From a virus (taxonomy: Duplodnaviria; Heunggongvirae; Uroviricota; Caudoviricetes), in IMG/VR virus record IMGVR_UViG_3300037418_002559, positions 15,999 to 79,998 of that record: DNA of 64,000 nucleotides. One strand, 5' to 3'. The position numbers and the translations under genes were made by a program. The notes beneath the pieces were generated by a model, which did no database searches, was not told the origin of the DNA, and worked only from the letters and a program-made list of their open reading frames with translations. Shown here piece after piece: positions 7,823 through 56,800 of the stretch (positions are counted from its first letter, which is position 1; every line of letters starts with the position of its first letter).

Positions 7823-7824
7823 CC

Positions 7825-23377: not shown

Positions 23378-23597
23378 CATTGTGAGTGAGCGCCTCTGCC
23401 ACGGTAGTACCTGTGGATTCTCCCCACGGCGGCGCTTTCTTGCTTTGGATGGGCGTAGAACGGTCATGCGCCCATCGGAGTTCCTTATTGTGGGAACCAG
23501 TTGCAGCGTGAACCCGAGGCGAACGGGGCGCGTCATGCTGCGCAGGCTGCACGTAGGGAACTCCGATGGTTGCATGAACAAACGGGAAGAGGACAGA

Positions 23598-27175: not shown

Positions 27176-27652
27176 ATGAGTAAGCCAGAAAAATTTACGT
27201 TGATAACTAATTTGCAGTTCGTGACCGTGCGCGGCGTGCGCACGTTCTGCCACGCGCTGCTTGTGACCGAGAATGACAAGGGTCTTTTCGGCCCAAGTTA
27301 CACCGTACGCGGATTCGGCACGGAGGGCGCATGGCCGGTCTTTGATATTCGCATAGCAAAGGAAGATTTGCCGTTCGCGCTTGCCGAAGCGCACAGTGCC
27401 GATAAGTTGTGGCTAAAAGAAGATGGAACCGCGCAGCCGTTAGTCAGCGGCGCTATTTTGTCATTCAAGTCCGGCCTGGATCTGCAGCTAGTGACTGCCA
27501 CGGACGAGAAGCCAATCGATGTTACACACTACACCGAAATCATCGAAGTCTGGCAGGCAGTTTGGCGCAAGACCGCCGAATACTGGCACATGCCTAACAT
27601 GCCGCGCCTCGTGTACGGTCCTCCATCACCCTCTGGGTGCACTTACCGCTGA
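27176..27652 (+). CDS. hypothetical protein
   Basis: ATGA overlap. Confidence 0.45.
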   Translation: MSKPEKFTLITNLQFVTVRGVRTFCHALLVTENDKGLFGPSYTVRGFGTEGAWPVFDIRIAKEDLPFALAEAHSADKLWLKEDGTAQPLVSGAILSFKSGLDLQLVTATDEKPIDVTHYTEIIEVWQAVWRKTAEYWHMPNMPRLVYGPPSPSGCTYR

Positions 27653-27666
27653 AAGGCTACGAAACA

Positions 27667-33363: not shown

Positions 33364-33552
33364 GGAGCGTCATTGTGCTACGGTTCGTCTACATAATACC
33401 GAAATTATTCTTTTTGGCTTGCCTGCTTGTCGCTTCTATTATCTTCTTCCCTGTGTTCTTTCTTACAAGGCGGCGCTGATCTAGGTGGATCGCGCGCGCA
33501 TGGGGCAGTGTTTGAGAACTACACAGGGTTTTACAAAGCTATTGAGGTCAGC

Positions 33553-35448
33553 GTGATCAAGGCACCACCAGTAATTTCTTGCGATTTTGAGACACACGGT
33601 ATAGAAGGCCGTCCTGACTACCCACCTAAACCAGTGTCACTTGGGTTGAAGTGGCCTGACCAGCGCGAATACAAGCTCATGGCATGGGGCCACGAAGCTG
33701 GCGACAACAACTGCACCGAAAAAGAAGCACGCGCTGAATACAAAAAAGCACATAACAGTAAGTACGCCATGCTTTTTCAGAATGGCTCTTTCGACCAGGA
33801 TGTAGCAGAGACACATTGGGAGATTCCACTGCTACCTTGGGACAAGACGCAGGACACGATGTATCTCATATTCTTATGGGATCCGCATGCACCTTCGCTG
33901 GCGTTGAAAGAAAGTGCGCATCGTCTACTTGGCATTAAGCCAGAGGAGCAGGACTTACTTAAGGATTGGATTTTGGCCAACGTGCCTGAAGCCAAGCGCA
34001 AGCCAAGTAGCTGGGGTGCGTATATCTGGAAAGCGCCTTACCGCGTAGTACGCCCTTACCACAAAGGTGATCTCGTACGTACAGATAAGGTATTTAATTA
34101 TCTATATCCTCGTATTGTGCAGGCTGAGATGCTGGAGGCTTACCAGCGTGAGTTGAAGCTCATGCCTATATTACTGCGCAATGCTCGGGCTGGTATGCGT
34201 GTAGATATGGATGGTCTAGAGCGCGACTTACCGGCGATGGTTACTGGCGTTGAGAAAGCTGACGCTTGGCTGCGTAAGCGTCTTGGTATCGAAAACATCG
34301 ACAGCGACCGCCAACTAGGGCAAGCACTCTATGACAAAGGCATCGTCACTGATTTTAAGCTAACGCCCAAAGGTCAGCTCAGTACAAGCAAGAAGACACT
34401 TACTTTGAATAAGTTCAAAGACCCACGTGTCTATCAGGCACTCCAGTACCGTGGCCAGATGAGCACTTCTATCTCAATGTTCATCAAGCCTTGGCTGGAA
34501 CTGGGTACTACTGGTAAAGGCGTGATCCACCCAAATTGGTCACAAGTGCGCAGCCCAAAGGGCAACAAGGATACCGGTGGCGCGCGCAGTGGCCGTATCA
34601 TCTGCTCCCGTCCCAACTTTTTGAATATCCCGAAGAAATGGAAGCGCGCTGCTTCAGCCGGTTATGTGCATCCAGCGTTCTTGAAAGTTCCAGAGCTACC
34701 TTACGTCAGACAGTACTGTCTGCCTGACGTGGGCCAACAGTGGGGTAAACGCGACTTCAATCAGCAAGAACTACGTCTCTTCGGGCATTTTGAAGAAGGC
34801 CCGGTCATGCATGGTTTCTTACACGATCCGAAATTCGACATACACGAATCGGTAAGAGCGGAGTGTGAGCGGCGCTTGATAGAAGCCGCCTTGCGCGAAG
34901 GCTTTGACCGTGATACAGCGAAGAGCTGCGTATTTGGTCGACTGTACGGGCAAGGCATAGCTGGTCTGATGCAACTATTGCAACTCTTAGACGAAGAGCG
35001 ACCAATTGCGCAGATCATTCAGCAAGCGATCAACACGGCTGTACCATCTATTAAAGAGTTGGATAACCAGCTGAAGGCATTAGCGAAAGAAGGCCAGCCA
35101 ATCCGCACTTGGGGTGGCCGCTTGTACTACTGCGAAGAGCCTGAGTATAGCGAGAAGTACGGTCGTGACATGACCTTTGAGTATAAGCTGCTGAACTATC
35201 TGATGCAAGGTAGTGGCGCTGATGTTACGAAGGAGACTATCATACGGTACGACGAGGCGAAAAAGAACAGCCGCTTCATTGTCACCGTATATGACGAGAT
35301 CAATTTCAGTGCGCCAGCAAAGGCTATGAAAGAAGAGCAGAAGATACTGCGCGATTGTATGCGTAGTATAGAAACGGACGTCCCCATGCTCTCAGATGGA
35401 GAAGTAGGGACGGATTGGGGCAGACTTGAGAAGCTTAAGGAGCAATAG
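33553..35448 (+). CDS. family A DNA polymerase with 3'-5' exonuclease domain (T7/Pol I-like, no 5' nuclease)
   Basis: Exo I ISCDFETHG; Exo II NGSFDQDV; motif A DFNQQELRLFGHF; motif B AKSCVFGRLYGQG; motif C VTVYDEINF. Start taken at GTG 33553 after GAGGT. The track's TTG at 33427 is the alternative. Confidence 0.85.
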   Translation: MIKAPPVISCDFETHGIEGRPDYPPKPVSLGLKWPDQREYKLMAWGHEAGDNNCTEKEARAEYKKAHNSKYAMLFQNGSFDQDVAETHWEIPLLPWDKTQDTMYLIFLWDPHAPSLALKESAHRLLGIKPEEQDLLKDWILANVPEAKRKPSSWGAYIWKAPYRVVRPYHKGDLVRTDKVFNYLYPRIVQAEMLEAYQRELKLMPILLRNARAGMRVDMDGLERDLPAMVTGVEKADAWLRKRLGIENIDSDRQLGQALYDKGIVTDFKLTPKGQLSTSKKTLTLNKFKDPRVYQALQYRGQMSTSISMFIKPWLELGTTGKGVIHPNWSQVRSPKGNKDTGGARSGRIICSRPNFLNIPKKWKRAASAGYVHPAFLKVPELPYVRQYCLPDVGQQWGKRDFNQQELRLFGHFEEGPVMHGFLHDPKFDIHESVRAECERRLIEAALREGFDRDTAKSCVFGRLYGQGIAGLMQLLQLLDEERPIAQIIQQAINTAVPSIKELDNQLKALAKEGQPIRTWGGRLYYCEEPEYSEKYGRDMTFEYKLLNYLMQGSGADVTKETIIRYDEAKKNSRFIVTVYDEINFSAPAKAMKEEQKILRDCMRSIETDVPMLSDGEVGTDWGRLEKLKEQ

Positions 35449-43936: not shown

Positions 43937-44335
43937 ATGAAAAACAGAAAATCTCAACGAGCAGCAGCAGATTTTATATGCAACATGTCCACCAGTGAGT
44001 GGATCGCGTACTGCAATGCAATGACACCCGAAACTCGGCAAATGCTGCTTGGCGATGCGGCGCCAGTTTCACTTGCGGACTTTGAAGGCAGCCGCAAGAC
44101 AGTGAAAACGAATAGTCAGTACAACGAAAAGAAGGCAATGCGCCAAGGGTGGCTGCTTGCAAACACAGGCAAGAAAATTGAAATTCAGCGCTACGACAAA
44201 GCGGAGAGATTTTCTTCAGACGCTGAGGCGCTTAAATTCGTGAAAGTCTTAGCGAAGAACGGTGATGAACACGCAAAATTCTGTCTGCGTTGTCTGACGC
44301 AAACAAGAAACAACGTACCTTGGGCGATCAACTAG
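43937..44335 (+). CDS. hypothetical protein
   Basis: ORF track entry. Confidence 0.45.
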   Translation: MKNRKSQRAAADFICNMSTSEWIAYCNAMTPETRQMLLGDAAPVSLADFEGSRKTVKTNSQYNEKKAMRQGWLLANTGKKIEIQRYDKAERFSSDAEALKFVKVLAKNGDEHAKFCLRCLTQTRNNVPWAIN

Positions 44336-44360
44336 GCCGCTAACAGGCAAACTTCGAATC

Positions 44361-44390
44361 TTTTAGCGGCCTGAAAGGAGCCGACGGAAA
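44361..44390 (+). promoter_or_regulatory. conserved SD-hairpin cassette (copy 3, no TATAAT)
   Basis: TTTTAGCGGCCTGAAAGGAGCCGACGGAAAATG. Confidence 0.4.
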
Positions 44391-44903
44391 ATGAAAACGA
44401 TAAAGGATTTTCAAGCAGATGCCGCGTATTATGCGCACTTGGCAAGACGACAAGGCGCGCTGGTAAAATTGACGATCGAAGCGATGGACAGTTGCGGAAT
44501 TGGACACGCGTATACGCCGCAACTCGCTGAGCAGCTTCAGAAGGGCGCTATGAAGGCGTGGCGCTTGGCCGAGATGGCCGTATCCAACGGGTACGTTTTG
44601 CCAGAAGACCTGCAACAGAAAGCCTACACGTCTGAAGACGCAGCAAAGAAGGAAACGCACCGTCCAGCGCTCGTAAGAAAATTCATCACAAGCATAGCGC
44701 CTTACGACCCGCGCATCGCGAACGAGGTAGGAGGGTTTGGAATCGGATTCCCACACGTTGGTCTACGGAAAATTGCCGAAGAGATGGGCTTCGGTACTAC
44801 GTACAGCACGTTCGGAACCGTGAATGTATTTTCTTCCACTTTGAAAGCGTGGAATGGCTGTCCGCTTCAACTCGGTTGGATCGTGGAGGTCTCCAATGCC
44901 TAA
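44391..44903 (+). CDS. hypothetical protein
   Basis: ORF track entry. Confidence 0.45.
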   Translation: MKTIKDFQADAAYYAHLARRQGALVKLTIEAMDSCGIGHAYTPQLAEQLQKGAMKAWRLAEMAVSNGYVLPEDLQQKAYTSEDAAKKETHRPALVRKFITSIAPYDPRIANEVGGFGIGFPHVGLRKIAEEMGFGTTYSTFGTVNVFSSTLKAWNGCPLQLGWIVEVSNA

Positions 44904-45933
44904 CGAAGTCATCTCAGACAACGTCGTACGCAAGATTCAGCTTCTGCTGCAACTCGCGGAGCGCGCGCACGGTAACGAGGTTGAGGCCGCAGCAGCGATG
45001 GCCAAGGCGCAAGAGCTCCTCGCGCGCTACAACCTGGACCTCACCACCGTACAGGACAAGGTAGTCGCAGGCGGCACCAACACGCCGGATGATGCAATGG
45101 CGAAGCGCGATTACGCCGTCACAAAGCGTAGCGCGATGTACCAGTGGCAGCGCAACCTTGTACGCGCGATTGCTGAAGCGAACTACTGCAAATACTGGAC
45201 GGCTGAGGTTACTGAAAAGGCGTACATTCCGCCCAGCAAGCGCAAGTATGGCACGGAAGATGAATCGCATCAGGACATCCATGTCAAGCGTCACAAGGTG
45301 CTGGGGCGCACGGCGAACACGATGTCGGTCATGCTCATGGTGGATTATCTGCTGGACACGATTGAGCGCTTACTGCCGTATCCGCAGAAAGAACGACTCA
45401 GCCGCTCAGCGAACAGCTGGCGCGAAGGATGCGCTGACCGGCTGATAGAGCGCGTGCGTGATAAGGCCGAGTCTATGCGCAAGGCGGACTATGCTACCCA
45501 AGGCGAAGCTGCGTACAGCACGGCTATCGCGGTACGCAATATGGCCACGGCTGAAGAAATCGGCAACTACGACCACATCAACGGCACGGGCGCGTGGGCG
45601 CGCAAACTTGAGCGTGATGCGAAGTGGGCAGAAGAGTCTAAGCAGTGGGCAGCCGCGCGAGAAGAACGCGAGAAACGTGAACTCGCTGAACTGGAAGCGA
45701 AGCTCGCCTTGGAAACGCCGGAGCAGAAAGCGCGCCGCGAAAAGAAGGAGGCGAAGCAGCGAGAAGCTGACGCGCGCTATGCAAGTCGTTACTGGGAACG
45801 GCAGGATCGCAAGGCGGAGCGCGAAGCACAGCGACGCGACCACGCCGCGTACAGCAGCGGGTCCAGAACGGCTGAGAAAATCGGGCTGGACGCGCAGCTG
45901 AAGCCCGGCAAGGAGGCCCAGAAGCTGGGCTAA
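44896..45933 (+). CDS. hypothetical protein with Lys/Glu/Arg-rich coiled-coil C-terminus
   Basis: GGAGG SD before ATG at 44896; EEREKRELAELEAKLALE... Confidence 0.5.
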   Translation: MPNEVISDNVVRKIQLLLQLAERAHGNEVEAAAAMAKAQELLARYNLDLTTVQDKVVAGGTNTPDDAMAKRDYAVTKRSAMYQWQRNLVRAIAEANYCKYWTAEVTEKAYIPPSKRKYGTEDESHQDIHVKRHKVLGRTANTMSVMLMVDYLLDTIERLLPYPQKERLSRSANSWREGCADRLIERVRDKAESMRKADYATQGEAAYSTAIAVRNMATAEEIGNYDHINGTGAWARKLERDAKWAEESKQWAAAREEREKRELAELEAKLALETPEQKARREKKEAKQREADARYASRYWERQDRKAEREAQRRDHAAYSSGSRTAEKIGLDAQLKPGKEAQKLG

Positions 45934-45995
45934 GTCACTGATTCTGCGCTGGTTGCAGCGAAGAAAATAAATCCTTCACGTGCCAATTTCTCCGT

Positions 45996-46030
45996 TATAA
46001 TTGTTGTGCGGCTGAAAGGAGCCGCTCCAA
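45996..46030 (+). promoter_or_regulatory. TATAAT plus perfect GCGGC/GCCGC hairpin with TGAAAGGA loop
   Basis: TATAAT at 45996-46001; hairpin 46008-46025; ATG at 46031. Confidence 0.45.
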
Positions 46031-46219
46031 ATGTTTATTTTCTTCGCTCCTGCCTTGCTCGCTTTACTCACAATCTTCGTGATCGCGTTCCGTGATCAGT
46101 TCGCCGCTGACAAACAGAAACCCATGCTGGAAGAAATACAGGATGCGCGGATCGCCTACAGCCAAGAAGTTTGGGAACAGGCCCGCAAGGAAGCTCTCGG
46201 AATCGAAGTAAACGCCTAG
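46031..46219 (+). CDS. small membrane protein
   Basis: MFIFFAPALLALLTIFVIAF. Confidence 0.35.
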   Translation: MFIFFAPALLALLTIFVIAFRDQFAADKQKPMLEEIQDARIAYSQEVWEQARKEALGIEVNA

Positions 46220-46241
46220 TCAACGCAGCACGAACCCGAGT

Positions 46242-46268
46242 CCAGCGCCTGAAGGGAGCGCCACTCAA
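46242..46268 (+). promoter_or_regulatory. SD-hairpin cassette variant
   Basis: CCAGCGCCTGAAGGGAGCGCC then ATG at 46269. Confidence 0.35.
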
Positions 46269-47936
46269 ATGACCGCAAAGAAAGTTACCGCCACCGTGAA
46301 GAAGTCCGCTAAACCAGAAGCCGTAAAAGCCACCGCCGCGCGCCTCACAAAGAAAGCTGACGCCGCCATCAAGAAGGCTGTCAGCGCGACTGCATCGCGG
46401 ATGGCCGATGAAGTCATCGCTCCCACACCGGTCAAGGCGAAGGAAATCAATGTCCGTAAACGGAACAAGGTTGGACTGGGTGTTATTGCAGATGAATTAC
46501 TCAGGCCAGTCAAAGCGCCAGTAACGCCGCTTACGAAGCTTTTGCTCAATGCGGGCTTCGTACACGCTCGTTCAGAAGCTGCCGACGAGCGCGACATTGC
46601 GCACGGCTACACCCACCCGGACGGCTCCGCTGCGATGTTCGTCCACTCCGCTACGAGTACGGACGTAGCGCCACGCTGGACCATCAAACAAGCGGACGGC
46701 ACGACGCTGAATGGTAAGACCGCCAAAGAGCTCGCGCTCGCTCTAACAAAGCCAGAAGCGCTTCCGGCGAATGTAACGTCGGCGCTGGACCTGCTTCGTA
46801 AGCTGACCAAAGGAACGTACCGACTCAACGACCTTGCCGGCGACGGTAATTACAAGGCACGCTTGCAGTTGCTGAAAAAGCTACTCAATACGGACAAGGT
46901 GCTTGTGAAGCAAAGCGGCGTCAACAACCTTGTCAAAGCGTTTTACTCGGCTCTGGACATCAAGACTGCAGCCGCTGCAGTCATGGCGTCTGAGTTCGAA
47001 GCGCGGTGCACTAGCCTTTTCAAGCAAGAGCAGAAGGCGGAGCGCGTTGTAGCGCGCGTAGAGAAGGCTGAAGTCAAAGAAGTTTTGAAGAACACGGCTT
47101 TTCAGCGCGAAGTCCACGATGGGAAGCCGATTCTTCCTGGTGTAAAGAAGCTGAGTGCCAAGAAACAGCGCGCCGCCGACGAAGCAGCCAAGGCCGAACT
47201 CGCAGCACAAATAGCACACAAGCGGCGGCAGGAAGAGTATACGCCGATTGCGGTCCCCCGTCCAGATTCAAAGGTAGATATCGACCTTTCCAGCATCTGT
47301 TTACTGGAAGACCCAAACAATGGAATCGTACTCATGTGTTTGGAAAAGCCAAATTCCCAGGGCGCGATTTGCGTGTATAATAATGGAAGTCGCGTTGCAG
47401 CCGGTGTTGTACCGACAGAAGTTTTGAATTCCCTGCGTCCCTTAGTGTCAGAAGACCTAGTGAGGGATGTGAACCAGTTACTGCACCCGATAACTGCGGG
47501 TGTCATTGTAACTCCACAAGCTGAACAACAGCTAACCGCAGTACTCAACTACTGCAAGGAGAATATCATCATGTCGACCGAAACCGCAGTAAAGACCAAG
47601 AAGTTCGCTCCTCCCGCCAGCGCCGCCAAGAAGGCATCGAAGAAGGCCGCGAAGCCAGCGCTCAAGACAGCCAAGAAGTCAGCCCACGACAAGGCTGAGC
47701 GCGCGCCGCGTATCACCGAAGATCGCAAGATCAAGGCGCTCATCACGGCGAAGGACAAGGAGCGCATGCCGCGCGAAGGCAGCTTCTGCTTCGGACAAGT
47801 CCAGGCCGTCATCGGCAGCAAGACTGTCAGCGAGGCGCAGGCCAAGCTGGACAAGAGTGGCCTGAATCCCAACAACCGTAAGCTGGAAGTCGCGTGGCTC
47901 CAGAAGCAAGGCTTCATCGAAGTAGCCACCGCCTAA
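46269..47936 (+). CDS. histone H1-like Lys/Ala-rich protein (555 aa)
   Basis: AKKA/KKAV-type low-complexity regions at both termini (KKVTATVKKSAKPEAVKATAARLTKKADAAIKKAV; KKASKKAAKPALKTAKKSA). Confidence 0.55.
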   Translation: MTAKKVTATVKKSAKPEAVKATAARLTKKADAAIKKAVSATASRMADEVIAPTPVKAKEINVRKRNKVGLGVIADELLRPVKAPVTPLTKLLLNAGFVHARSEAADERDIAHGYTHPDGSAAMFVHSATSTDVAPRWTIKQADGTTLNGKTAKELALALTKPEALPANVTSALDLLRKLTKGTYRLNDLAGDGNYKARLQLLKKLLNTDKVLVKQSGVNNLVKAFYSALDIKTAAAAVMASEFEARCTSLFKQEQKAERVVARVEKAEVKEVLKNTAFQREVHDGKPILPGVKKLSAKKQRAADEAAKAELAAQIAHKRRQEEYTPIAVPRPDSKVDIDLSSICLLEDPNNGIVLMCLEKPNSQGAICVYNNGSRVAAGVVPTEVLNSLRPLVSEDLVRDVNQLLHPITAGVIVTPQAEQQLTAVLNYCKENIIMSTETAVKTKKFAPPASAAKKASKKAAKPALKTAKKSAHDKAERAPRITEDRKIKALITAKDKERMPREGSFCFGQVQAVIGSKTVSEAQAKLDKSGLNPNNRKLEVAWLQKQGFIEVATA

Positions 47937-47952
47937 GTTCATCAACCGCGTG

Positions 47953-47983
47953 GGACCGGCGCGTAATCCGGTCCATTCCTCTT
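47953..47983 (+). terminator. putative terminator hairpin (weak U tract)
   Basis: GGACCGG-cgcgtaat-CCGGTCC followed by ATTCCTCTT, 17 nt after the stop at 47936. Confidence 0.35.
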
Positions 47984-48005
47984 AGCCTGCAAAGGATCCA
48001 GACAA

Positions 48006-48230
48006 ATGCCTGTAACGCTCGCCCGTCGCATTCGCCGCATCGGACTTCTGCCAACAACCTACAAGGAAACCAAGGAGACCGTTCTCAGGGTCAACGAGGA
48101 CGGAGAAGAAATCACAATCACGCACACCAAGAAAATTCCTGTTCGGCACCACAGCCGCATGTCTAACGATACGCGCGCTGAAATAACCAGTAAGCTACGC
48201 GCTGAAGCGAAAGCAAAACGCAAGAAGTAG
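48006..48230 (+). CDS. hypothetical basic small protein
   Basis: ORF track entry. Confidence 0.4.
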   Translation: MPVTLARRIRRIGLLPTTYKETKETVLRVNEDGEEITITHTKKIPVRHHSRMSNDTRAEITSKLRAEAKAKRKK

Positions 48231-48267
48231 TAGCCAGCCTACCAAACTAAATTCAAACCCCTATTGC

Positions 48268-48304
48268 CGTCCACCCAGTTCAACGGGTGGACGTCGTAGT
48301 TTCT
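48268..48304 (+). terminator. rho-independent terminator
   Basis: 9-bp stem CGTCCACCC-agttcaac-GGGTGGACG followed by TCGTAGTTTCT. Separates the upstream genes from the cassette starting at 48318. Confidence 0.6.
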
Positions 48305-48317
48305 GGAACGGAGATAA

Positions 48318-49163
48318 ATGAAAAATTTAACGCTCATCATACCCACGCATGGCCGGGTGGGAAAGCAAACCACGCTCCAAGCATTACCGACCAAACTTCA
48401 GGCCGAGGTCATTCTCGTTACTTCTCTGCCAGGAGAAGCGAAAGAGCTGCGCGCCCTTTACCCTAAGAACGAGGTAGCCGTAGCCAAGGGGACTACGTCT
48501 ATCGCTACCAAGCGGCACTGGATTATGCAGAACATTAAAGGCCGCATGCTGTTCATGCTGGACGACGACATAGCCTTCTTTGAGCGCTGCCCGCCCAAGT
48601 GGCGCGTGTGGGAGCCGCACCGCAAGGCCTACGCCTTGGCCAAGGAGGCCCCGGCCGACGCTGCCTTGATGAAGCGCCTGTATCCGCAGGACGCCAAGCT
48701 GCTCTCTTTGTTTCAGGACATGGATAAACGGGTGGCTTCACACAAACCAGCCATGATTGGTATAGCGCATCGGCGGCACAGCGATAAGAAGCAGGAATCA
48801 TGGGAAGTCAACGCGCGCATGATGTACGCATTCGGCGTAGATCCGGCCATTTACAAGGAAGAGAAAATTCGGTTCGATCGTGTAGGACTTCGTGAGGATT
48901 TCCACGTTGTTCTAAGCATGCTGCGCAGAGGACACGAGTGTCATAATTATCTGGAGCTACTGAACAATGAGTATGGCTCGTTCGGCGCTGCTGGTGGGTG
49001 CAGTGGTGAACGCTCCATGGAGTACAGCAACGAGCAGTGCTACGCGCTGCAGAAGCTGCACCCGGAGTTCGTCAAAGTTGTGGAGAGAGATTACAAAGGC
49101 TCCTTTCCACGCAAAGAGGTAGTCGTAGCCTGGAAGAAAGCATTTGAAAGTAGCAAGCAATGA
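48318..49163 (+). CDS. GT-A-fold (DXD) glycosyl/phospho-group transferase
   Basis: GGAG SD; LTLIIPTHGR (GT2-like N-terminus); MLFMLDDDIAFF (DXD). Confidence 0.6.
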   Translation: MKNLTLIIPTHGRVGKQTTLQALPTKLQAEVILVTSLPGEAKELRALYPKNEVAVAKGTTSIATKRHWIMQNIKGRMLFMLDDDIAFFERCPPKWRVWEPHRKAYALAKEAPADAALMKRLYPQDAKLLSLFQDMDKRVASHKPAMIGIAHRRHSDKKQESWEVNARMMYAFGVDPAIYKEEKIRFDRVGLREDFHVVLSMLRRGHECHNYLELLNNEYGSFGAAGGCSGERSMEYSNEQCYALQKLHPEFVKVVERDYKGSFPRKEVVVAWKKAFESSKQ

Positions 49164-49858
49164 TCATAGACCATAAAATTGTACGTAATAGCGGCTCCAC
49201 GCTGGAGCCGTGCATCTATAAGAGCGGCCCAGGTACAGTCGCGCAAGGTAGGAAGATGCTGGCGTATCCACACGTATTTGCGCCTGTGCTCGGTATTACT
49301 GACCATGGCTACTGTATGCCACGTCTGAATGAACCGTCCAGTGTCTCTCTTTCTGCAGCGCTGGATCGATTAGTCGTACTCTGGAACTCGACGGACATTG
49401 GACTGCTTGTCGCAACGCGTGCGCAACACCACGAAACGCAAGTAGCGCCTTTGGCTACTGAGCCGCTCCTGCGGCGCGCGCTGGAGCAGTGGCACGCACG
49501 TGTGCAGACAGTACACGGTACTGCTGTCAACGTTGTGCACGGTGATCCAACACTTGAGAATTACATGTACAATGGTGTCTGGCTGGACCCCAGTACGCGC
49601 CCGTTGCCTTTGGAAGCTGAGTTGGATGGCGGCAAGTTACTACAGTCTTACTTTGGCTACGGCCATTGTGGCACTACGGAAGAACTGCAAGCGATCAGAA
49701 AATTCATTCACACATGTGGACTGAATCTAGATTTGTGCGCGTATTACCTGGTCACACACTTGGTACGCTTGTACCGTGTTCAGCCGCAGGCCCAGTTCTG
49801 GGCAGTTACAGTAGCCGAAACGCTTGAGGAAAGAATGGAGGATTTTAAATGCAAGTAG
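49160..49858 (+). CDS. APH/choline-kinase-fold small-molecule kinase
   Basis: Brenner motif VVHGDPTLENYMY (HGDxxxxN) then WLDPS; ATGA overlap with the upstream gene. Confidence 0.6.
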   Translation: MIIDHKIVRNSGSTLEPCIYKSGPGTVAQGRKMLAYPHVFAPVLGITDHGYCMPRLNEPSSVSLSAALDRLVVLWNSTDIGLLVATRAQHHETQVAPLATEPLLRRALEQWHARVQTVHGTAVNVVHGDPTLENYMYNGVWLDPSTRPLPLEAELDGGKLLQSYFGYGHCGTTEELQAIRKFIHTCGLNLDLCAYYLVTHLVRLYRVQPQAQFWAVTVAETLEERMEDFKCK

Positions 49859-50583
49859 TAATCTTAGCTGCTGGGCGTGGCATACGCTTCGGCTCGGATA
49901 TTGTGCCGAAGATACTGCATACAGCCAGAGGCAAAACGTTGTTCAGACATGCCTTGGAGCAAGCTGCGGAGGTAAGCCGAACGCCAGTAGTCGTATGCAT
50001 GGCTGGGCTGGAAGAACGTCTGTCCAAAAATACACCCGTAAGTATTTATCCGTTGTTCAGCCCTATCCACGTCACACAGCAAGGTGCAGCGCTGTCGTTG
50101 CTTACGGCGGCTGGTCGTATGCAAGATGATGAGCCACTACTTGTCATGGACTGCGATACTATCTTTGCAAGTGGTACTATGATGCGCTTCGCTGACTTCG
50201 CTACGCGTGCATTCGCTGCTGGAAAAAACTCGGCTGTACTGACCTTCGTTCCAAACGACGACAGTGCGCGCTACAGCTTCGCAGCTGTCGATACGCAGGA
50301 AGATACGCCGTTCCCACACGTCGCCATGGTAGTGGAAAAGGAGCGTATTAGTAACGTGGCCACTTGCGGCGTCCATGCCTTCGCGTCTTGGACTGTCGTT
50401 CGGCAGGCCATTTATGAAATGGTTATTTTACAGACCATGACGAACGGAGAGTATTACTTAGCCCCTGCGCACAACAACATCGTTGGTACGACAGCCATGC
50501 TGATCGTTGCTGACCAGTTCAACCACGTTGGTACACCTGCTGAATTGGAGGCCTATGAGCGAGCAGTTTCCGCGACTCGATGA
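49849..50583 (+). CDS. sugar-phosphate nucleotidyltransferase (GlmU/IspD/RmlA-like NTP_transferase)
   Basis: N-terminal VVILAAGRGIRFGSDIVPKILHTARGKTL signature; 10-nt overlap with the kinase gene. Confidence 0.65.
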   Translation: MQVVILAAGRGIRFGSDIVPKILHTARGKTLFRHALEQAAEVSRTPVVVCMAGLEERLSKNTPVSIYPLFSPIHVTQQGAALSLLTAAGRMQDDEPLLVMDCDTIFASGTMMRFADFATRAFAAGKNSAVLTFVPNDDSARYSFAAVDTQEDTPFPHVAMVVEKERISNVATCGVHAFASWTVVRQAIYEMVILQTMTNGEYYLAPAHNNIVGTTAMLIVADQFNHVGTPAELEAYERAVSATR

Positions 50584-51418
50584 GTTTGTTCGGTTTGTAA
50601 ATGAACGTTGGAGCATACACCTGAAGCGCACAGAAGGTCTGCCGGCACCATGGACGAAGGATCCTATACTACAAAAGTACCGCTTTACAAATGTTCGCCG
50701 AGAAGATGACCGTGTTACTCGCTGGATACATGAGCAGTGGCTACGCGACCGCGCGACCGACGAGCTGTGGCTCGCTTTCTACGTTAGTCGCGTATTCAAT
50801 AAGCCGGAAACATTGGCCGCAATTGGTTGGCCGTTACCATGGAGCGCTGCTACGAAGAAACGAGTGTATACCGCCATTAAGAAGAGGCAAGCAAATGGTG
50901 AGCGGGTCTTCAACGCAGCCTACATCGTATCATCACATGGGCGCGCGACTTGCTCTAAGACTGAATACTACATGGAGATCTTCGACGAACTGTGGGCGCG
51001 ACGTAAAGTTGTTCGGCCCGTTCACGGAGATAGTCTGGAATCATTTTTCAGTAGATTGTGCGAACAGCCCGGTATCGGCGGCTTTATGGGAGCTCAAGTA
51101 GTGGCTGACATAAAAGCGTACGAGCCACTATACGGCTCTGACGACCTGTACACGTTTGCACGTAGCGGCCCTGGTAGTCGGCGTGGCATGCATTGGGTGC
51201 GTGGAACGGAGCCACTGCCGCGGTACAACGAGAGTGCATGGCAGGCAGACTTACTACTACTTATGGCTGCAGTGCGGCCTAAGCTCAAAGTATCGCTGGA
51301 TGCTCAGAATCTACAGAATTGCCTGTGCGAGTTCAGTAAGTACTGCAAGGTGAAGTTCAACGGCGGACGGGCTAAACAGATATTCCGGCCGAGTGTAGCT
51401 GCTTACACCAGCCTATAA
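50555..51418 (+). CDS. putative aGPT-Pplase-like DNA base hypermodification enzyme
   Basis: GGAGG SD 3 nt before the ATG. N-terminal WSIHLKRTEGLPAPWTKDPILQKYRFTNVRREDDRVTRW matches my recollection of the aGPT-Pplase family. The call rests on context and memory. Confidence 0.45.
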   Translation: MSEQFPRLDEFVRFVNERWSIHLKRTEGLPAPWTKDPILQKYRFTNVRREDDRVTRWIHEQWLRDRATDELWLAFYVSRVFNKPETLAAIGWPLPWSAATKKRVYTAIKKRQANGERVFNAAYIVSSHGRATCSKTEYYMEIFDELWARRKVVRPVHGDSLESFFSRLCEQPGIGGFMGAQVVADIKAYEPLYGSDDLYTFARSGPGSRRGMHWVRGTEPLPRYNESAWQADLLLLMAAVRPKLKVSLDAQNLQNCLCEFSKYCKVKFNGGRAKQIFRPSVAAYTSL

Positions 51419-51440
51419 TTAAAGTAAACAAGGAGAAGTA
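51411..51440 (+). promoter_or_regulatory. internal promoter-like GCCTATAATTAA element
   Basis: TATAAT at 51414-51419, overlapping the upstream stop. AAGGAGAAG SD then ATG at 51441. Confidence 0.4.
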
Positions 51441-52511
51441 ATGTTTAGTTATAAAGCACATGATGTAAATGAAGCGCTCTCATTCGGCCTGCAGCATTTA
51501 CTGCGTGAAGGCATCGAAGAAACCAGTCGTGTGGGTCCAGTGCTCGTAGCACCCGGCCCTGTGTGTATTGAATATGTAAACCCAAGACAGCGAGTTTTGT
51601 ATAGTCCAACACGTGACGCGAACCACGTATTCCATCTTATGGAATCACTGTGGCTGCTGTCTGGTAGCAACGAGATTGAATTTCCGGTATTCTTTAACAA
51701 AGCCTACGCACAGTTCAGCGACGACGGAACTACGATATGGGACAGCTACGGTTGGCGCTGGCGGCAGTTCTTTGGCTATGATCAATTGGAAGAAATCGTC
51801 GCAGAGCTAAAGAGGAATCCCAGCTCAAGGCGCTGCGTGCTGAGTATGTGGAATGGCGCAGAATGGTCGGCAGGCAATGGTCCTGATCCGTCTTGGGCGC
51901 GTGAAGACGGGCTTTGGATGCAAAGCGATCTTAGTGTAGCTTGCAATGGTGGCAAAGCGGTCCCCTGCAACACGCATGCGTATTTCGCTGTACGTGGTGG
52001 TAAGCTCAACATGACGGTCATGAATCGCTCCAACGATGCTATGTGGGGCTGCTTCGGCGCGAATGCCGTTCACTTCAGCTTACTGCTGGAATACATGGCT
52101 GTGCGTGTTGGGTTGCCTATGGGTAGTTACTTCCAGTTCACAAACAACCTGCACACCTACACCGATAAATTCAGTGTAGACATGCTCAATACAATAGAGC
52201 ACGAATGCGATACGGTTGGCGCGCTGCCGCAACCTGGCCCTGCGATTGAACCTGGATTTGACGAGGATCTGCGCCTATTCATGCCTTGGGCACTGTCAGT
52301 TATACGTTCGACGCCGGGGGATACTTTGCGCGCGCTGAACGTACCACAATTAGAAACACCATTCATGTATTCCGTAGTAGCTCCTATGTTTTTGTTCTGG
52401 GTGTATCGTAAGTGGAAAGACGAGTACAGCAGCTCTATTTGCTTGAATGGTATTGATGCGCCAGACTGGCAACGGGCTTGTGAAGAATGGAAGGAGCGTA
52501 GACGTAAGTGA
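51441..52511 (+). CDS. ThyA-family pyrimidine C5 hydroxymethylase/methylase (likely dUMP hydroxymethylase)
   Basis: MESLWLLSGSNE, DQLEEIVAELKRNPSSRRCVLSMWN, catalytic PC in VPCNTHAYFAVRGGKLNMTVMNRSNDAMWG, TNNLHTY. 356 aa with a C-terminal extension. Confidence 0.8.
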   Translation: MFSYKAHDVNEALSFGLQHLLREGIEETSRVGPVLVAPGPVCIEYVNPRQRVLYSPTRDANHVFHLMESLWLLSGSNEIEFPVFFNKAYAQFSDDGTTIWDSYGWRWRQFFGYDQLEEIVAELKRNPSSRRCVLSMWNGAEWSAGNGPDPSWAREDGLWMQSDLSVACNGGKAVPCNTHAYFAVRGGKLNMTVMNRSNDAMWGCFGANAVHFSLLLEYMAVRVGLPMGSYFQFTNNLHTYTDKFSVDMLNTIEHECDTVGALPQPGPAIEPGFDEDLRLFMPWALSVIRSTPGDTLRALNVPQLETPFMYSVVAPMFLFWVYRKWKDEYSSSICLNGIDAPDWQRACEEWKERRRK

Positions 52512-53095
52512 AAGAGGTTCTGCAATTCATCATGGAAGGTGGTAGTGTGCAGCGCTACCACACGCGTCCGGGCATAAGGCCGGACACAAACGCGCACCAC
52601 AGCCATGGCGTCCTGATGCTGGCCAGTCTGCTGGCCGGTCAGAATGAGCAAACAGGCTGCACGCAGGCTAGTGTTAATTTACTCATGGCATGTGCTACGC
52701 ATGATTTGGCGGAGCAACTGGCCTGCGATGTAAGCGCGCCAGCCAAGCGGTTGCTCGGTATACGTGAGCTTCTGCATGACTTGGAGTCCAACGAGCTGAG
52801 AACGCATCTGCTCGACTACGAGCAGCACCTTACAGAAGACGAGCGTACTATTCTGCAGCTTGCCGATTGCTTTGATGGTATGATGTATTGCTGTCGAGAG
52901 CTTGCTCTGGGTAATAGAAATGCCTTGCTCATCTGGCGTCGGTTTTGCAGTTACATAACTAAGATTACAGCACAACACGACATTGAGTTTGAAATTGGGC
53001 TGCGCGCCAGTGTGATGTTTGAATCCATCAAAGAAATCTACAGAGAGGTTACAAGTGTCACAGGACCAGAATTCGACATCTTCAAAGGCAAATGA
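52508..53095 (+). CDS. HD-domain phosphohydrolase, YfbR/OxsA/DatZ-like 5'-deoxynucleotidase
   Basis: RYHTRP...NAHHSHGVLMLASLLA...CATHDLAEQ...DCFDGMMY. GTGA overlap with the ThyA-like stop. Confidence 0.7.
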   Translation: MKEVLQFIMEGGSVQRYHTRPGIRPDTNAHHSHGVLMLASLLAGQNEQTGCTQASVNLLMACATHDLAEQLACDVSAPAKRLLGIRELLHDLESNELRTHLLDYEQHLTEDERTILQLADCFDGMMYCCRELALGNRNALLIWRRFCSYITKITAQHDIEFEIGLRASVMFESIKEIYREVTSVTGPEFDIFKGK

Positions 53096-53327
53096 TGTGC
53101 AGGTTGGTGGTACGCATTACCAAAATGCTGTTGGAACTTGCCCTCATTGTGGCGGCCCCATCCAACATTGGGATCTGTTCGGTAAAATGCCGTACTTAGT
53201 TGGGCAGGTCTGCCGCTACGTACTACGCTTCCAAGGCAAGAATGGCAAGGAAGACATAGAAAAGGCTGGGCACTTCCTTCAGAAATTGAAGGAAGTCTAC
53301 TTCCCAGAGCAAGAAAAGAAGCCTTAA
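53019..53327 (+). CDS. small Zn-ribbon protein (VGGTHYQ...CPHCGG...YVLRFQGK), possibly DUF3310-like
   Basis: The track gives a TTG start at 53019. A GTG at 53097 after AAAGG is the likelier start and overlaps the HD stop. Confidence 0.45.
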   Translation: MNPSKKSTERLQVSQDQNSTSSKANDVQVGGTHYQNAVGTCPHCGGPIQHWDLFGKMPYLVGQVCRYVLRFQGKNGKEDIEKAGHFLQKLKEVYFPEQEKKP

Positions 53328-53333
53328 ACGACA

Positions 53334-53380
53334 AAAGACCCTCTCCTAAGCCCACAAAAGGGGCCAAGGAGAGGGTCTTT
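53334..53380. terminator. bidirectional intrinsic terminator between convergent modules
   Basis: 14-bp perfect stem AAAGACCCTCTCCT / AGGAGAGGGTCTTT with an inner GCCC/GGGC stem. Lies between the TAA at 53325-53327 (+) and the lysin stop at 53379-53381 (-). T-rich tails on both strands. Confidence 0.7.
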
Positions 53381-53840
53381 ATGCTTGCAATAAAGCTGCG
53401 TGCGCATGCAGGATAGAAGTGCAGGTTGCGCTCCGCGCCGGGTCCGTGCTCCACGTCATTGACACTTGTCGTAGGAACTCTTCAGGCGTGCCGGCCACGA
53501 GCGCCGCCGCGTAGTGCGGGTAGCTTGGTGCCAACCGTTTGAGAGTGTCCATCCGGTCGGCAAAGCAGGCCGACAGTGACGGGTAGTTTATAAAGTCGGC
53601 CTGTACAACCGTCCAGTGTCCGTCCAAGAACTCTCGTGTTGGCAGGCTGACAGTGGCGTAGACCGGGTGGCTGTGCTGCTTCATGCCGAACCCGTTGTTG
53701 TAATCCAGGAAGAGGCGCGAGGTTCCCCACGCGCTCTCCACCATCATCTCGCAGGCCTGCGCATTGGGGAATAGCACCCCAGAGGCGCAGGCCTGCTCGT
53801 AGGCGCGTCGTAGCGCCGCTTGTTGCTGCTGTGTTATCAT
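53379..53840 (-). CDS. endolysin, mannosyl-glycoprotein endo-beta-N-acetylglucosaminidase (FlgJ-type glucosaminidase) domain
   Basis: ESAWGTSRLFLDYNNGFGMK matches the glucosaminidase signature ESGWG.S.L...NN.FGIK. Confidence 0.7.
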   Translation of the reverse strand: MITQQQQAALRRAYEQACASGVLFPNAQACEMMVESAWGTSRLFLDYNNGFGMKQHSHPVYATVSLPTREFLDGHWTVVQADFINYPSLSACFADRMDTLKRLAPSYPHYAAALVAGTPEEFLRQVSMTWSTDPARSATCTSILHAHAALLQA

Positions 53841-53849
53841 GGCTAAGTC

Positions 53850-56800
53850 TCAATACGGTGTGCACAATACGTCGTAAGTCATGCCTGCGGTCGCGGTGTG
53901 CGTGACGGTTATTTGGTTGGTGATTTTAGCGCTGACATAAGTGGTGGCGATGTTCGTAGCTGCGGCGGCGTTGGTAGCCGTCAGCGAGCAATGCCCACTG
54001 GCGGTCATGCCGGTCACCGTAACGTTGTCGGACGCAGCGGCGGTAGTGGTGAGAGCTCCTACAGGTAGATTTGCAGCAGACGGGCAGTTCGTGCCGTTGG
54101 CCTGGCAGACGTTCTGCCCGGCAACGGTCAACGAGCCGGTGAACGTGCCCTGCGCCGACATCACTTTGCCGGTTGTGTCGACGGCTGGTGGCGCTGCACC
54201 AGCGGCCTGCCCTGTGTCGTCACAGGCACCGCTTGATATACTTCCAGAGATAAGGTTATTAGTAACTGTGCAAATAAGCCCTAATGAGGGGCTCCCCGGA
54301 CCTGCCGTACGGTAGACCTTAGTCGACTGTGCCCCGTATCCAAGCAGTATGAAGATGCTGTTTTTGTTGGTAGAGCTGAGGGTTGCATTGCCAGTGTTAG
54401 TTAGTGTGACTGCGCTTGGCAGCGATTCGCCGTTTTGCGTCACGCTGGTGGCTACGTAGCTCCATGTTGAACTGCCGGTGGTGCCTTGCGGTTGCACCGA
54501 CGTTATGGTGGGTGGCGCCGCTCCAGCGTAGAGCGTGCCAGAGTAGTGCGTTTTGTCGGCGATTATGGCGGACGTGTCGAGGATACCCTCGTTGCCAAAC
54601 GTGCCGTAGGTTCCAAGGGCTGCTTGAAGGTTGGAGCGACTGTCTGCCGCCGATGTAAGAGCCACTGGAAGCCCCGGAGTAAATCCCCCGTTTACGTAAG
54701 TGCCATCGCCGGTGCTGAGTATGTTGGCACGAGTGCGCGCCGTTTTTACGTTGTTTAGGTACCAATCTTGCGTGGTGGACGTGTAGTTTATCTTGCCGGC
54801 TCCGCCGTCTACCGACATCACCTGCATGTCGTTGCGCGCATTGCCGCAGCCGCCCTGCGTAGAAACCACGCACCCCAGAGCAATGGCCGGTTTCCCGTCG
54901 ATAGGAAACTGAGCCACGGTGATTGCCGTGCTCATCGGCCCGTTGAGTATGATGCCGCGCGGCGCGGTCAGCCAACCACCACCTCCCACGTACCACGAAC
55001 TAGGATTCGTGTTCTGCTCGCTGAGGAACTTGTACTGCCCACTTATCCCCATGCCGCCGCCCAAGAAATTAAACGCGCCGATGTTGTTGATTGAGCCGGA
55101 ATCAGGGCTGTTCACAGTGGCAGCCGCCGCTACAGTGTACCCACCGAAGGCCGGGTCGAATGGGTTCTCGATAAGATTTCCCACGCTCCAGTCCACGGAG
55201 TTTGGTTCAAGTGGAACGCCCGCCGAAGTCGCCGGTTGCACAACCGCTGCGCCTCGGAAAAGGTAGTAGTTGAAGTACACCTGTGGGTACGATATCTGTG
55301 CCGTCGCCGAAGTACCCGAGACGCCGCTCTGCGTCCAAGAGATGGTCTGATTATTGTTACTCAGCTTGACGTTAGTGACAGTCCCATTGAAGGCGGAGTT
55401 GGAGGCGTTGCTGATGACTGCTGAGGCTAGGTTATCGAGCACGCTGGAAGAATTGGTGCTCGCAAAGCCAGCCGTCACCGTGGTTCCAGACACCGATAGA
55501 TTGACAAGGCCAACATTCGCCGTGCTGCTATTCCAGAGGGTAGGAATTGGTGCCGATGTCGCCATAGTGCCGCTACTACTAGTCAGGAACCTACCTACAA
55601 TCTCATGTATTGATCTTGCTCCGAAGACGGGGTAGTCGGTGCGCCAACCAGCAAACGGACCATTGAAAAATGGCTGGGAGGCCATGTAGTAGGTTCCGCA
55701 AAGCCCTCCCAGCCCTCCTCCAGCGTTTTGCCAAAGCGAAGTTCCAAGCTGCGGATTCGGGTAGCGGTGCGTGAAGGTGACGGACTGCTGCCCGCCAGAC
55801 AGAGTTCCGACGGCTGTAATGGCAACCTGCTCATATTTCGCCGCGCCATCCAGACAAGCTGTTCCGACTACGTAGCCTCCTGCATTCGTCCCGCCATCGA
55901 CCGAAAAGGTGACGGTATCAGTTTGTGGGTTAATGTTTGTAATTGGTGTTGGAATGGCGGCCTGGGCAAGTCCGTATGCTCCGGATACAGTAACTGTCGC
56001 GTCGGTTGGCGTCGCCCACGCGGCATAGCCGGGAACCTGCGTGGCTACTCCTGTGACGTTGGCTCCGCTGACAGCGATGCTGTGGAGGTTGAGCATGATT
56101 CCGCCGACGGAGACCTGTGAGCGTGAGTTCGTTCCTGCGGTATAGGTCACGGGCAGCAGCTGCGTTCCCGTCGTCGCTCCCGCCGCAACCGTGCCATGGA
56201 ACCATGAGGAATGCTGATTGTCTTGCAACCCAAGCCCGGTGGAACACTCGTCCCCTCCAGAACTGCAGCCGCCGTCGGTATTATTGTAGAGGTATGCGTT
56301 CTGGCCGTCGCCAGAAGAGAACTTATCTTGCGTGCCAGATATCATACTGGCGATGGTAGGCGTGCTAACTGTTTGACTGATGTTGATACCGTGAACAGAA
56401 GACCAATCAGAACCGAGGTAGGGACCGCCCCATGTGCCGAAATAGAAGCCCTTTCCATTGAAGGTGTTTACTAGATGCAGCGCATCTTGCTGCTGTCCGG
56501 GGTAGTTTCCGGCGCTCGGCGTGGCCTGATCCCAAAGACTGTAGACCGTTCTAGCACTTGCGTAGGATGCGCCGAAAAGATTGTAAACCCGCGACGGCGG
56601 ATTCTGAAAGAAGCTGTTCGCGCCGCCGAGCCTGAAATCGTGCGCCTGCGAACCCGTCTTAGTCGTCACCTCTTCCGTGGACGCGCTGGTTTGCGGCACC
56701 TCCACATCGCAGCCAGCCACGCAATCAGAGCTGGCGTAGGCGTTCACAACACCGCCGTACTGCGCGGCATTGAGCGCCCCGTTGGTCACGTTGCCCGTCA

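Follow-up and report, generated by a model that had tools for sequence, protein, structure and literature searches.

A predicted deoxyuridylate hydroxymethylase of the ThyA superfamily encoded next to a TAGT-family glycosyltransferase gene in a Caudoviricetes virus

A 64,000-nucleotide stretch of a Caudoviricetes virus (IMG/VR record IMGVR_UViG_3300037418_002559, positions 15,999 to 79,998; hereafter the window) carries an open reading frame (ORF) for a protein resembling thymidylate synthase (ThyA). The sequence comparisons described below make it quite probable that this ORF encodes a folate-dependent deoxyuridine monophosphate (dUMP) 5-hydroxymethylase, or 5-hydroxymethyl-dUMP (5-hmdUMP) synthase, of the phage SPO1 gp29 type. 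An earlier note, made from the same DNA by reading alone, had favoured a dUMP hydroxymethylase over a thymidylate synthase. This preference is supported here: SPO1 gp29 is the closest characterised protein, the residues N177 and D169 (E. coli ThyA numbering) are kept, the NCBIfam cutoffs for thymidylate synthase are failed, and genes specific to 5-hydroxymethyldeoxyuridine (5-hmdU) adjoin the homologous genes. The features that the note had flagged as unusual are clade-typical, and the gene cluster around the enzyme is the more interesting lead.

Family placement and active site of the ThyA-like protein

The ThyA-like ORF runs from ATG to a stop codon and encodes 356 amino acids. In a separate gene prediction, a matching metagenome contig yielded an identical product. 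The features of the gene, all on the plus strand, are as follows.

51414..51419, plus: TATAAT hexamer that overlaps the preceding gene's stop codon; not supported as a promoter
51430..51435, plus: Shine-Dalgarno sequence AAGGAG, 5 nucleotides before the ATG (sequence reading)
51441..52511, plus: predicted dUMP hydroxymethylase (5-hmdUMP synthase), ThyA-family coding sequence, 356 amino acids (ORF, PF00303, PHROG 5131)
51861..51950, plus: sub-clade-specific insertion (residues ~141-170) that separates the MWN strand from the catalytic loop (alignments, model)
51957..51959, plus: codon of Ala173, at the E. coli L143 position (alignments)
51966..51971, plus: codons of the catalytic nucleophile Cys176 and the clade-typical Asn177 (E. 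coli C146 and H147; alignments)
52026..52037, plus: codons of Arg196-Ser197-Asn198-Asp199 (E. coli R166-S167-C168-D169), with Asp169 kept (alignments)
52062..52064, plus: codon of Asn208 (E. coli N177, T4 D179), uracil-specifying (HMMER, MAFFT)
52176..52508, plus: C-terminal helical region, residues ~246-356 (alignments, model)

The Pfam family Thymidylat_synt (PF00303) matched residues 61-245 at 1.1e-19, well beyond chance, its 71 bits exceeding the cutoff of 24.3. Every ThyA alignment motif quoted in the earlier note was found in the ORF, namely DQLEEIVAELKRNPSSRRCVLSMWN (residues 114-138), PCNTHAYFAV (175-184), MNRSND (194-199), and GANAV (206-210). All seven NCBIfam equivalog models of thymidylate synthase stayed below their cutoffs, the best one scoring 66.6 bits against 327. 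On the other hand, PHROG 5131 matched residues 4-355 over a profile of 357 positions (1.1e-92), C-terminal extension included. The products of SPO1 gene 29, E. coli thyA, and T4 gene 42 were compared by BLASTP. SPO1 gp29 gave the best score (E 1.9e-40, 32% identity over 264 residues), followed by E. coli ThyA (E 1.6e-12) and by T4 gp42, a deoxycytidine monophosphate (dCMP) hydroxymethylase (E 3.5e-6). SPO1 gp29 is annotated as a dUMP hydroxymethylase and was purified and characterised as such (Wilhelm & Ruger 1992 and Schellenberger 1995, cited after later work).

The best phage relatives, with 37-39% identity over 97-100%, belong to the Pseudomonas phages M6 (gp58), PaMx11 (gp51), Ab18/19, and ZC01 and to the Ralstonia phage phiRSL1 (ORF230). 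GenBank labels the ZC01 and phiRSL1 homologues as deoxyuridylate hydroxymethyltransferase. It is known that the DNA modifications of M6 and PaMx11 originate from 5-hmdU (PMC8989533), and the ThyA homologue of these phages has been taken as a dUMP hydroxymethyltransferase ('dU hmt') (PMC5889632, PMC8989533). By these comparisons, the ThyA-like protein is placed in the ThyA superfamily, in a phage clade with the SPO1 gp29, M6, and PaMx11 homologues. It is a fairly divergent member as judged by identity, which is 32-39% to any homologue from an isolated phage. A megablast search of positions 44000-56000 against 50,697 phage records found no relatives at the DNA level. The window has only one gene of the ThyA family.

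Next, the active site was aligned. Below, one-letter symbols refer to E. coli ThyA and three-letter symbols to the ThyA-like protein. R21, E58, Y94, and R126/127 correspond to Arg30, Glu68, Tyr103, and Arg130/Arg131; L143, C146, and H147 to Ala173, Cys176, and Asn177; R166-S167-C168-D169 to Arg196-Ser197-Asn198-Asp199; and N177, H207, and Y209 to Asn208, His238, and Tyr240. According to a recent study, N177 specifies dUMP and an Asp at the same position specifies dCMP; L143 is bulky and water-excluding in thymidylate synthase and is replaced by an acidic residue (Asp/Glu) in hydroxymethylases; and D169N is the signature of flavin-dependent 5-hydroxy-dCMP synthases (PMC13326640, 2026). The conservation of these positions was assessed in 114 close metagenomic homologues and in 80 IMG/VR loci with genes for related proteins (L015-L094), which were annotated by phmmer against reference proteins.

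Asn208 aligned with N177 and with D179 of T4 gp42 in HMMER comparisons against ThyA and MilA and in a MAFFT alignment (A1), while in two larger MAFFT alignments an insertion of one residue just before Asn208 displaces T4 by a single column. The position is Asn in 113 of the 114 homologues and in 79 of the 80 loci, including all 30 loci with a gene for a TAGT-family glycosyltransferase. Thus, the uracil-specifying residue is retained within GANAV, as the earlier note had read it. Asp at the D169 position is invariant (114/114 homologues, 80/80 loci). Retention of both residues argues against a dCMP hydroxymethylase and against a 5-hydroxy-dCMP synthase. The Cys-Asn dyad, which had been put forward as a distinguishing feature, is present but is no peculiarity of this protein; both residues are invariant in the same 114 homologues and 80 loci, and the P-C-N motif is common to the homologues of SPO1 (gp29), M6, PaMx11, and phiRSL1. 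The thymidylate synthase features H147, L143, and W80/W83 are replaced by Asn, Ala, and Tyr/Phe, respectively.

The L143 position is different. It is Asp in SPO1, M6, PaMx11, phiRSL1, and T4, and the ThyA-like protein, with Ala173, has neither an acidic nor a bulky hydrophobic residue there. Ala is characteristic of the protein's own sub-clade, occupying the position in 70 of the 114 close homologues, including all of those at least 70% identical, but it is rare in the wider set, with just 5 of the 80 IMG/VR loci. The idea that it follows the TAGT context was rejected, since Ala occurs in 2 of the 30 TAGT loci and in 1 of the 22 loci with a P-loop 5-hmdU DNA kinase gene. Variants with Ala or Cys at the L143 position adjoin genes of the 5-hmdU pathway: a faint match to the HMUDK P-loop kinase in one locus (L011) and an amino-acid:DNA transferase (ADDT) in another (L012). 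Since Ala is not bulky and such variants lie beside 5-hmdU-pathway genes, Ala173 is treated here as variation within the hydroxymethylases and not as a sign of another reaction, although the assignment is weakest here. The residue also puts to the test a recent proposal by which hydroxymethylases are marked by an acidic residue at this position.

An AlphaFold2 model of the protein, built with 90 homologues, has a mean confidence (pLDDT) of 94.2 and a pTM of 0.93. The closest solved fold is that of MilA, the cytidine monophosphate 5-hydroxymethylase of mildiomycin biosynthesis (PDB 5b6d, 5jnh), which aligns with the model in about 360 columns that take in the C-terminal helices as well (E 2e-19, TMq 0.73-0.76). 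With thymidylate synthases, only the core of the model aligns (TMq ~0.5). MilA is also the best PDB match by sequence (20-24% identity). It differs from the ThyA-like protein in its cytosine ribonucleotide substrate and in its N177 and L143 positions, which are both Asp (PMC13326640) where the ThyA-like protein has Asn and Ala. No dUMP hydroxymethylase is among the listed PDB structure matches, and a BFVD fold search returned only generic 'thymidylate synthase' labels. No structure is known for the phage dUMP hydroxymethylase clade, and SPO1 gp29 is the only member known to have been assayed.

The protein is 92 residues longer than E. coli ThyA (264 residues). The earlier note had put the excess at about 90 residues and spoken of a long C-terminal extension. 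The length was right, but part of it comes from an insertion of about 25-30 residues before the catalytic Cys, which is poorly conserved and predicted to be disordered at residues 143-155. The C-terminal extension exists and is typical of the clade, since PHROG 5131 spans it in full and it superposes on MilA. This helical region, residues ~246-356, stands in place of the folate-closing C-terminus of thymidylate synthase and ends in a conserved DWxxAxxEWxxRR motif, in which W343 and W350 are invariant.

E. coli ThyA and T4 gp42 share with the ThyA-like protein the fold, the catalytic Cys, the phosphate-binding arginines, E58, Y94, H207, and Y209. The protein differs from E. coli ThyA by H147N, L143A, the replacement of W80/W83, the lack of a C-terminal lid, and the 92 additional residues, and from T4 gp42 by an Asn in place of Asp179. 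SPO1 gp29 has the same P-C-N, RSND, and GAN(x) motifs and likewise a helical C-terminus instead of the thymidylate synthase tail. Both proteins are long (383 residues in SPO1), while their C-terminal regions align poorly. In contrast, SPO1 gp29 has Asp at the L143 position and lacks the 25-30-residue insertion before the catalytic loop. M6 gp58 and PaMx11 gp51 are 37-38% identical to the protein over the full length, including the DWxxAxxEWxxRR motif. RB69 gp48 and DLP3 gp80 are ThyA homologues that supply an acceptor hydroxyl and are clustered with glycosyltransferase and nucleoside diphosphate (NDP)-sugar genes (PMC13326640). They have the N177D, L143E, and D169N replacements, whereas the present protein has Asn, Ala, and Asp at these positions.

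The gene cluster and a possible glycosylation pathway

The ThyA-like gene lies in a co-directional module from 48318 to 53327. The gene ends mostly overlap, which is consistent with co-transcription. The neighbouring genes, and the polymerase gene referred to below, are as follows.

33427-35448: family-A DNA polymerase
48318..49163, plus: TAGT-family (GT-A) DNA glycosyltransferase, 281 amino acids (Pfam PF20691, 2.7e-13; PHROG 842, 2.1e-41)
49160..49858, plus: putative small-molecule kinase of the APH/FN3K/choline-kinase fold, 232 amino acids, with an HGDxxxxN motif (AlphaFold2 and Foldseek)
49849..50583, plus: sugar-1-phosphate nucleotidyltransferase-like protein, 244 amino acids (Pfam NTP_transf_3, 2.1e-13; NTP_transferase)
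50555..51418, plus: HMUDK_hel (PF18723) protein, 287 amino acids, homologue of M6 gp55 (Pfam, 2.5e-42; gene call of 287 amino acids)
52508..53095, plus: HD phosphohydrolase of the YfbR-like 5'-deoxynucleotidase family, 195 amino acids, homologue of M6 gp59 (Pfam, 7.1e-9)
53055..53327, plus: DUF3310 protein, about 90 amino acids, the last gene of the module (Pfam, PHROG, gene call)

The earlier note had proposed an internal promoter-like GCCTATAATTAA directly upstream of the ThyA-like gene. This was rejected: a sigma-70 scan found no -35/-10 pair at the TATAAT of 51414-51419, and the hexamer occurs 11 times on the plus strand of the window against about 8 expected by a rough estimate from base composition, that is, at chance level.

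The TAGT, kinase-like, and nucleotidyltransferase-like genes, on which the earlier note was silent, lie directly upstream of the HMUDK_hel/ThyA-like pair and form with it a glycosylation-type cluster, of the kind with a GT-A gene near a ThyS gene that Pyle et al. surveyed. The 232-residue kinase-like protein has no Pfam match. Its model has a pLDDT of 95.8, residues H127, G128, D129, and N134 are invariant, and the 50 best Foldseek matches in the PDB all belong to the APH/FN3K/choline-kinase superfamily with TM scores of 0.5-0.6. The nucleotidyltransferase-like protein has weak NCBIfam matches to the GlmU N-terminus, AglF, and MurU. No PDB relatives were found by sequence for the HMUDK_hel and TAGT proteins.

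The immediate upstream neighbour had been called aGPT-Pplase-like. The protein shares 26% identity with M6 gp55 (E 3e-34) and shows no similarity to the catalytic amino-acid:DNA transferase M6 gp51. In Pfam, M6 gp51 falls in ADDT and M6 gp54 in the P-loop kinase family, and the HMUDK_hel family takes in M6 gp55, PaMx11 gp50, and phiRSL1 ORF231. An aG/PT-PPlase paralogue is what M6 gp55 was called by Lee et al. 2018 (PMC5889632); thus, the former label is loosely right. An identity as an aGPT-Pplase or amino-acid:DNA transferase was rejected, since the protein falls in HMUDK_hel and not in the catalytic ADDT family (PF18724) and is unlike M6 gp51. The 2021 reconstitution proceeded without gp55 (PMC8989533).

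The HD protein is 33% identical to M6 gp59, and YfbR is its best PDB match by sequence. The start of its gene overlaps the stop codon of the ThyA-like gene. The HD and DUF3310 genes overlap by about 40 nucleotides; the longest DUF3310 ORF begins at a TTG (53019), while the gene call on the matching contig begins at 53055.

M6 and PaMx11 have the same gene order of HMUDK_hel, ThyA-like, and HD. Their cassette consists of the P-loop 5-hmdU DNA kinase and ADDT with either pyridoxal phosphate (PLP) and radical S-adenosylmethionine enzymes or flavin adenine dinucleotide-dependent and acetyltransferase enzymes, whereas the present cassette consists of the TAGT, APH-fold kinase, and nucleotidyltransferase genes; the two phages also differ by the Asp at the L143 position. 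Searches of the window with phmmer, using the M6 and PaMx11 proteins, and with Pfam found neither the P-loop 5-hmdU DNA kinase (PF18748) nor ADDT (PF18724), and phmmer found no M6-type dCMP deaminase. Thus, of the M6/ViI type of thymidine hypermodification, which is defined by the kinase plus ADDT, the window has only the HMUDK_hel and HD neighbours in common. SPO1 is different again, as its 5-hmdU stays unmodified in the DNA and its gene 29 has no TAGT or HMUDK_hel neighbour.

The closest parallel among isolated phages is phiRSL1, whose ORF230 scores highest among the homologues from isolated phages (38% identity, E 3e-73, tblastn). Like the window, its cluster (ORF230-237) has HMUDK_hel (ORF231), TAGT-like glycosyltransferase, nucleotidyltransferase, and APH-domain genes. 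Unlike the window, this 231-kb jumbo phage has three TAGT-like glycosyltransferases, a sulfotransferase, and Asp at the L143 position, and its APH-domain protein is annotated as NDP-sugar pyrophosphorylase-like (nucleotidyltransferase-like). The phiRSL1 cluster hints at a pyrimidine that carries a sulfated glycan. No chemical analysis of phiRSL1 DNA was found in the literature searched.

Is this gene neighbourhood common among the relatives? The neighbours of the ThyA-like gene in the 80 loci are distributed as follows.

HMUDK_hel, upstream of the ThyA-like gene: 68 of 80 loci
HD, downstream of the ThyA-like gene: 60 of 80 loci
DUF3310: 42 of 80 loci
TAGT: 30 of 80 loci
P-loop 5-hmdU DNA kinase: 22 of 80 loci
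ADDT: 11 of 80 loci

TAGT and the P-loop 5-hmdU DNA kinase do not share a single locus (Fisher p = 4e-6), and the active-site signature of the ThyA-like protein is the same in the 30 TAGT loci and the 22 kinase loci. The shared signature supports one precursor, 5-hmdU, that is tailored in alternative ways. This suggests that the TAGT and kinase cassettes are interchangeable around the ThyA-like clade, leading to glycosylation or to phosphorylation and amino-acid transfer. HMUDK_hel adjoins the ThyA-like gene also in most of the 30 TAGT loci, all of which lack the P-loop kinase. Thus, its role seems tied to the hydroxymethylase core rather than to the kinase.

In related contigs of about 100 kb, the core order of HMUDK_hel, ThyA-like, HD, and DUF3310 is kept while the upstream content varies. 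The variants are TAGT with the kinase-like and nucleotidyltransferase genes, Glyco_transf_4 with a methyltransferase, a faint match to the HMUDK P-loop kinase, or ADDT with a PLP enzyme as in M6; the last two types adjoin homologues that are 53-58% identical. Insertions into the core were also seen: L011 has a gene resembling uracil-DNA glycosylase between HMUDK_hel and the ThyA-like gene (7572-8000), and L004 has an SPFH/Band_7 gene between the ThyA-like and HD genes (6472-7326). The window has a Band_7 gene of its own at 31557-32459. In a survey by Pyle et al., GT-A glycosyltransferase genes were found to adjoin ThyS genes and APH phosphotransferase genes, the base and the chemistry being left unresolved (bioRxiv 10.1101/2023.12.21.572611).

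The analysis shows the homology, the active-site residues, the fold, and the statistics of the gene neighbourhood. From the chemistry of the family I infer the following mechanism, with its substrate and product, and from the gene context a pathway with a glycosylation step. dUMP would be held by the phosphate-binding Arg30, by Arg130/Arg131 of the partner subunit, and by Arg196 and Ser197, and Asn208 would read the uracil. The thiolate of Cys176 would attack C6 of the uracil, C5 would then attack the iminium form of 5,10-methylene-tetrahydrofolate, and elimination would leave an exocyclic C5-methylene intermediate. Water, instead of the hydride that tetrahydrofolate provides in thymidylate synthase, would be added to this intermediate to give 5-hmdUMP and tetrahydrofolate. 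L143, W80/W83, and H147 of thymidylate synthase, together with its C-terminal lid, are missing from the pocket. 5-hmdUMP may then be converted to the triphosphate and used in place of thymidine triphosphate (dTTP) by the family-A polymerase of the phage, and the adjoining HD 5'-deoxynucleotidase-like enzyme may help to deplete the competing nucleotide. After replication, the TAGT glycosyltransferase would put a sugar on the 5-hydroxymethyl group in the DNA, the NDP-sugar donor probably being made by the APH-fold kinase and the nucleotidyltransferase.

Because TAGT and the 5-hmdU DNA kinase never co-occur in the 80 loci, glycosylated 5-hydroxymethyluracil (5hmU) is tentatively proposed as the end product, with somewhat less than even confidence. 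Equally tentative is the wider proposal that this lineage, phiRSL1, and about one third of the related viral contigs build a base-J-like glycosylated 5hmU by a pre-replicative route, with swappable and mutually exclusive cassettes. In such a system, HMUDK_hel, the hydroxymethylase, HD, and DUF3310 would form the core, on top of which the tailoring cassettes would be swapped, and HMUDK_hel would contribute its own function to this core instead of being an accessory of the kinase. No report of glycosylated 5hmU in phages was found in the literature searched, the coverage of which was incomplete. If the proposal is true, many uncultured phages as well as phiRSL1 glycosylate 5hmU. This would bear on the evasion of restriction and CRISPR and on the sequencing of such genomes, and it would provide a source of DNA glycosyltransferases acting on 5hmU.

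Alternative functions of the enzyme

Several points weigh against a dUMP hydroxymethylase feeding a glycosylation pathway. The one real deviation is Ala173 in place of the Asp/Glu typical of hydroxymethylases, so that support for the water-addition step is weaker in this protein than for SPO1 or M6. The nearest assayed member of the clade, SPO1 gp29, is only 32% identical, and the M6 and PaMx11 homologues were themselves assigned by homology and pathway logic. The Foldseek E-values for the kinase fold are marginal (2e-3). No dCMP deaminase, deoxynucleoside monophosphate kinase, or dTTPase was recognised in the window; since the source contig is about 100 kb long, these genes may lie outside it. 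Finally, the characterised TAGT enzymes act on 5-hydroxymethylcytosine (5hmC) and not on 5hmU (PMC8256090).

Could the gene product be a genuine thymidylate synthase that makes thymidine monophosphate for phage replication, with the modification genes acting on something else? The Pfam match and all NCBIfam matches are to thymidylate synthase models, most public records label the homologues as such, and R21, E58, Y94, R126/127, C146, R166, S167, D169, N177, H207, and Y209 are all conserved. With Ala, the L143 position is also devoid of the acidic side chain common in hydroxymethylases. However, every equivalog cutoff is missed by about 5-fold or more, and the protein has other residues at H147, W80, W83, and L143 and a helical region where the folate lid of thymidylate synthase would be. 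The nearest characterised relative and the nearest solved fold are both hydroxymethylases, the gene is conserved beside 5-hmdU-pathway genes in 68 of the 80 loci, and no family resembling dihydrofolate reductase is among the Pfam matches to the scanned ORFs of the window. Thus, a thymidylate synthase is quite improbable. A dCMP hydroxymethylase like T4 gp42, whose 5hmC would be glycosylated by the TAGT enzyme as in T-even and in TET phages, is very improbable. TAGT-family and PHROG 842 glycosyltransferases are indeed known from 5hmC pathways, and the best PDB matches are those of MilA, a cytosine-nucleotide hydroxymethylase. Against this, the specificity residue is Asn and not Asp, with the near invariance described above extending to all TAGT loci; the similarity to T4 gp42 is weak (E 3.5e-6); the adjoining HMUDK_hel and HD genes are common to thymidine-modifying phages; and no deoxycytidine triphosphatase was seen.

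It is also unlikely that Ala173 and the insertion enable another C5 chemistry on dUMP, such as flavin-dependent formation of 5-hydroxy-dUMP or a reaction in which a different nucleophile traps the methylene intermediate. Such an activity would fit the sub-clade's deviation at the L143 position (Ala in 70 of the 114 close homologues), the 25-30-residue insertion beside the catalytic loop, and the place of the gene inside a glycosylation cluster, and some ThyA homologues have recently proved to be 5-hydroxy-dCMP synthases that supply glycosylation pathways (PMC13326640). The diagnostic D169N replacement, however, is absent from the protein and from all homologues and loci compared, the Ala/Cys variants adjoin 5-hmdU-pathway genes (the faint kinase match of L011 and the ADDT of L012), and the insertion shows little conservation and is modelled as disordered. 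A dUMP hydroxymethylase is thus preferred over these three alternatives.

Other genes in the window

Further genes noted outside the module are as follows.

8209-9126, plus: sigma-70-like factor with regions 2 and 4
12878-13450, plus: MazG / PRA-PH-like pyrophosphohydrolase (1.4e-13)
20202-20681, plus: NT5C-like 5'-deoxynucleotidase (4.5e-6)
20624-21715, plus: protein with weak DnaJ and protein-kinase domain matches
23352-24764, plus: adenylosuccinate synthetase homologue, 470 amino acids, with an N-terminal extension of about 85 residues (Pfam, 5.7e-45)
27637-28527, plus: DHHA1-domain protein (8e-6)
46269-47936, plus: ORF of 555 amino acids without a Pfam or NCBIfam match

The adenylosuccinate synthetase homologue scored 121.6 with the NCBIfam PurA model (cutoff 402) and 38.6 with the PurZ model (cutoff 300). 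Its nearest phage relatives are the PurA-like proteins of Bxz1-type mycobacteriophages (36-38% identity). The presence of PurA-like, MazG-like, and HD proteins brought up the idea of a Z-genome (PurZ, MazZ, DatZ). No such claim is made here, as the PurA-like protein is far below both cutoffs. The HD protein as DatZ was likewise set aside, since it is homologous to M6 gp59 and M6 is a phage without a noted PurZ. The MazG-like, NT5C-like, and DHHA1 proteins could help to exclude dTTP or other nucleotides. ORFs of 519-587 amino acids lie upstream of the modification module in four related contigs (L002, L004, L011, and L013) and are likened to the 555-residue ORF by size and position alone. The DnaJ/kinase-like protein and the sigma-70-like factor suggest phage-encoded control of transcription.

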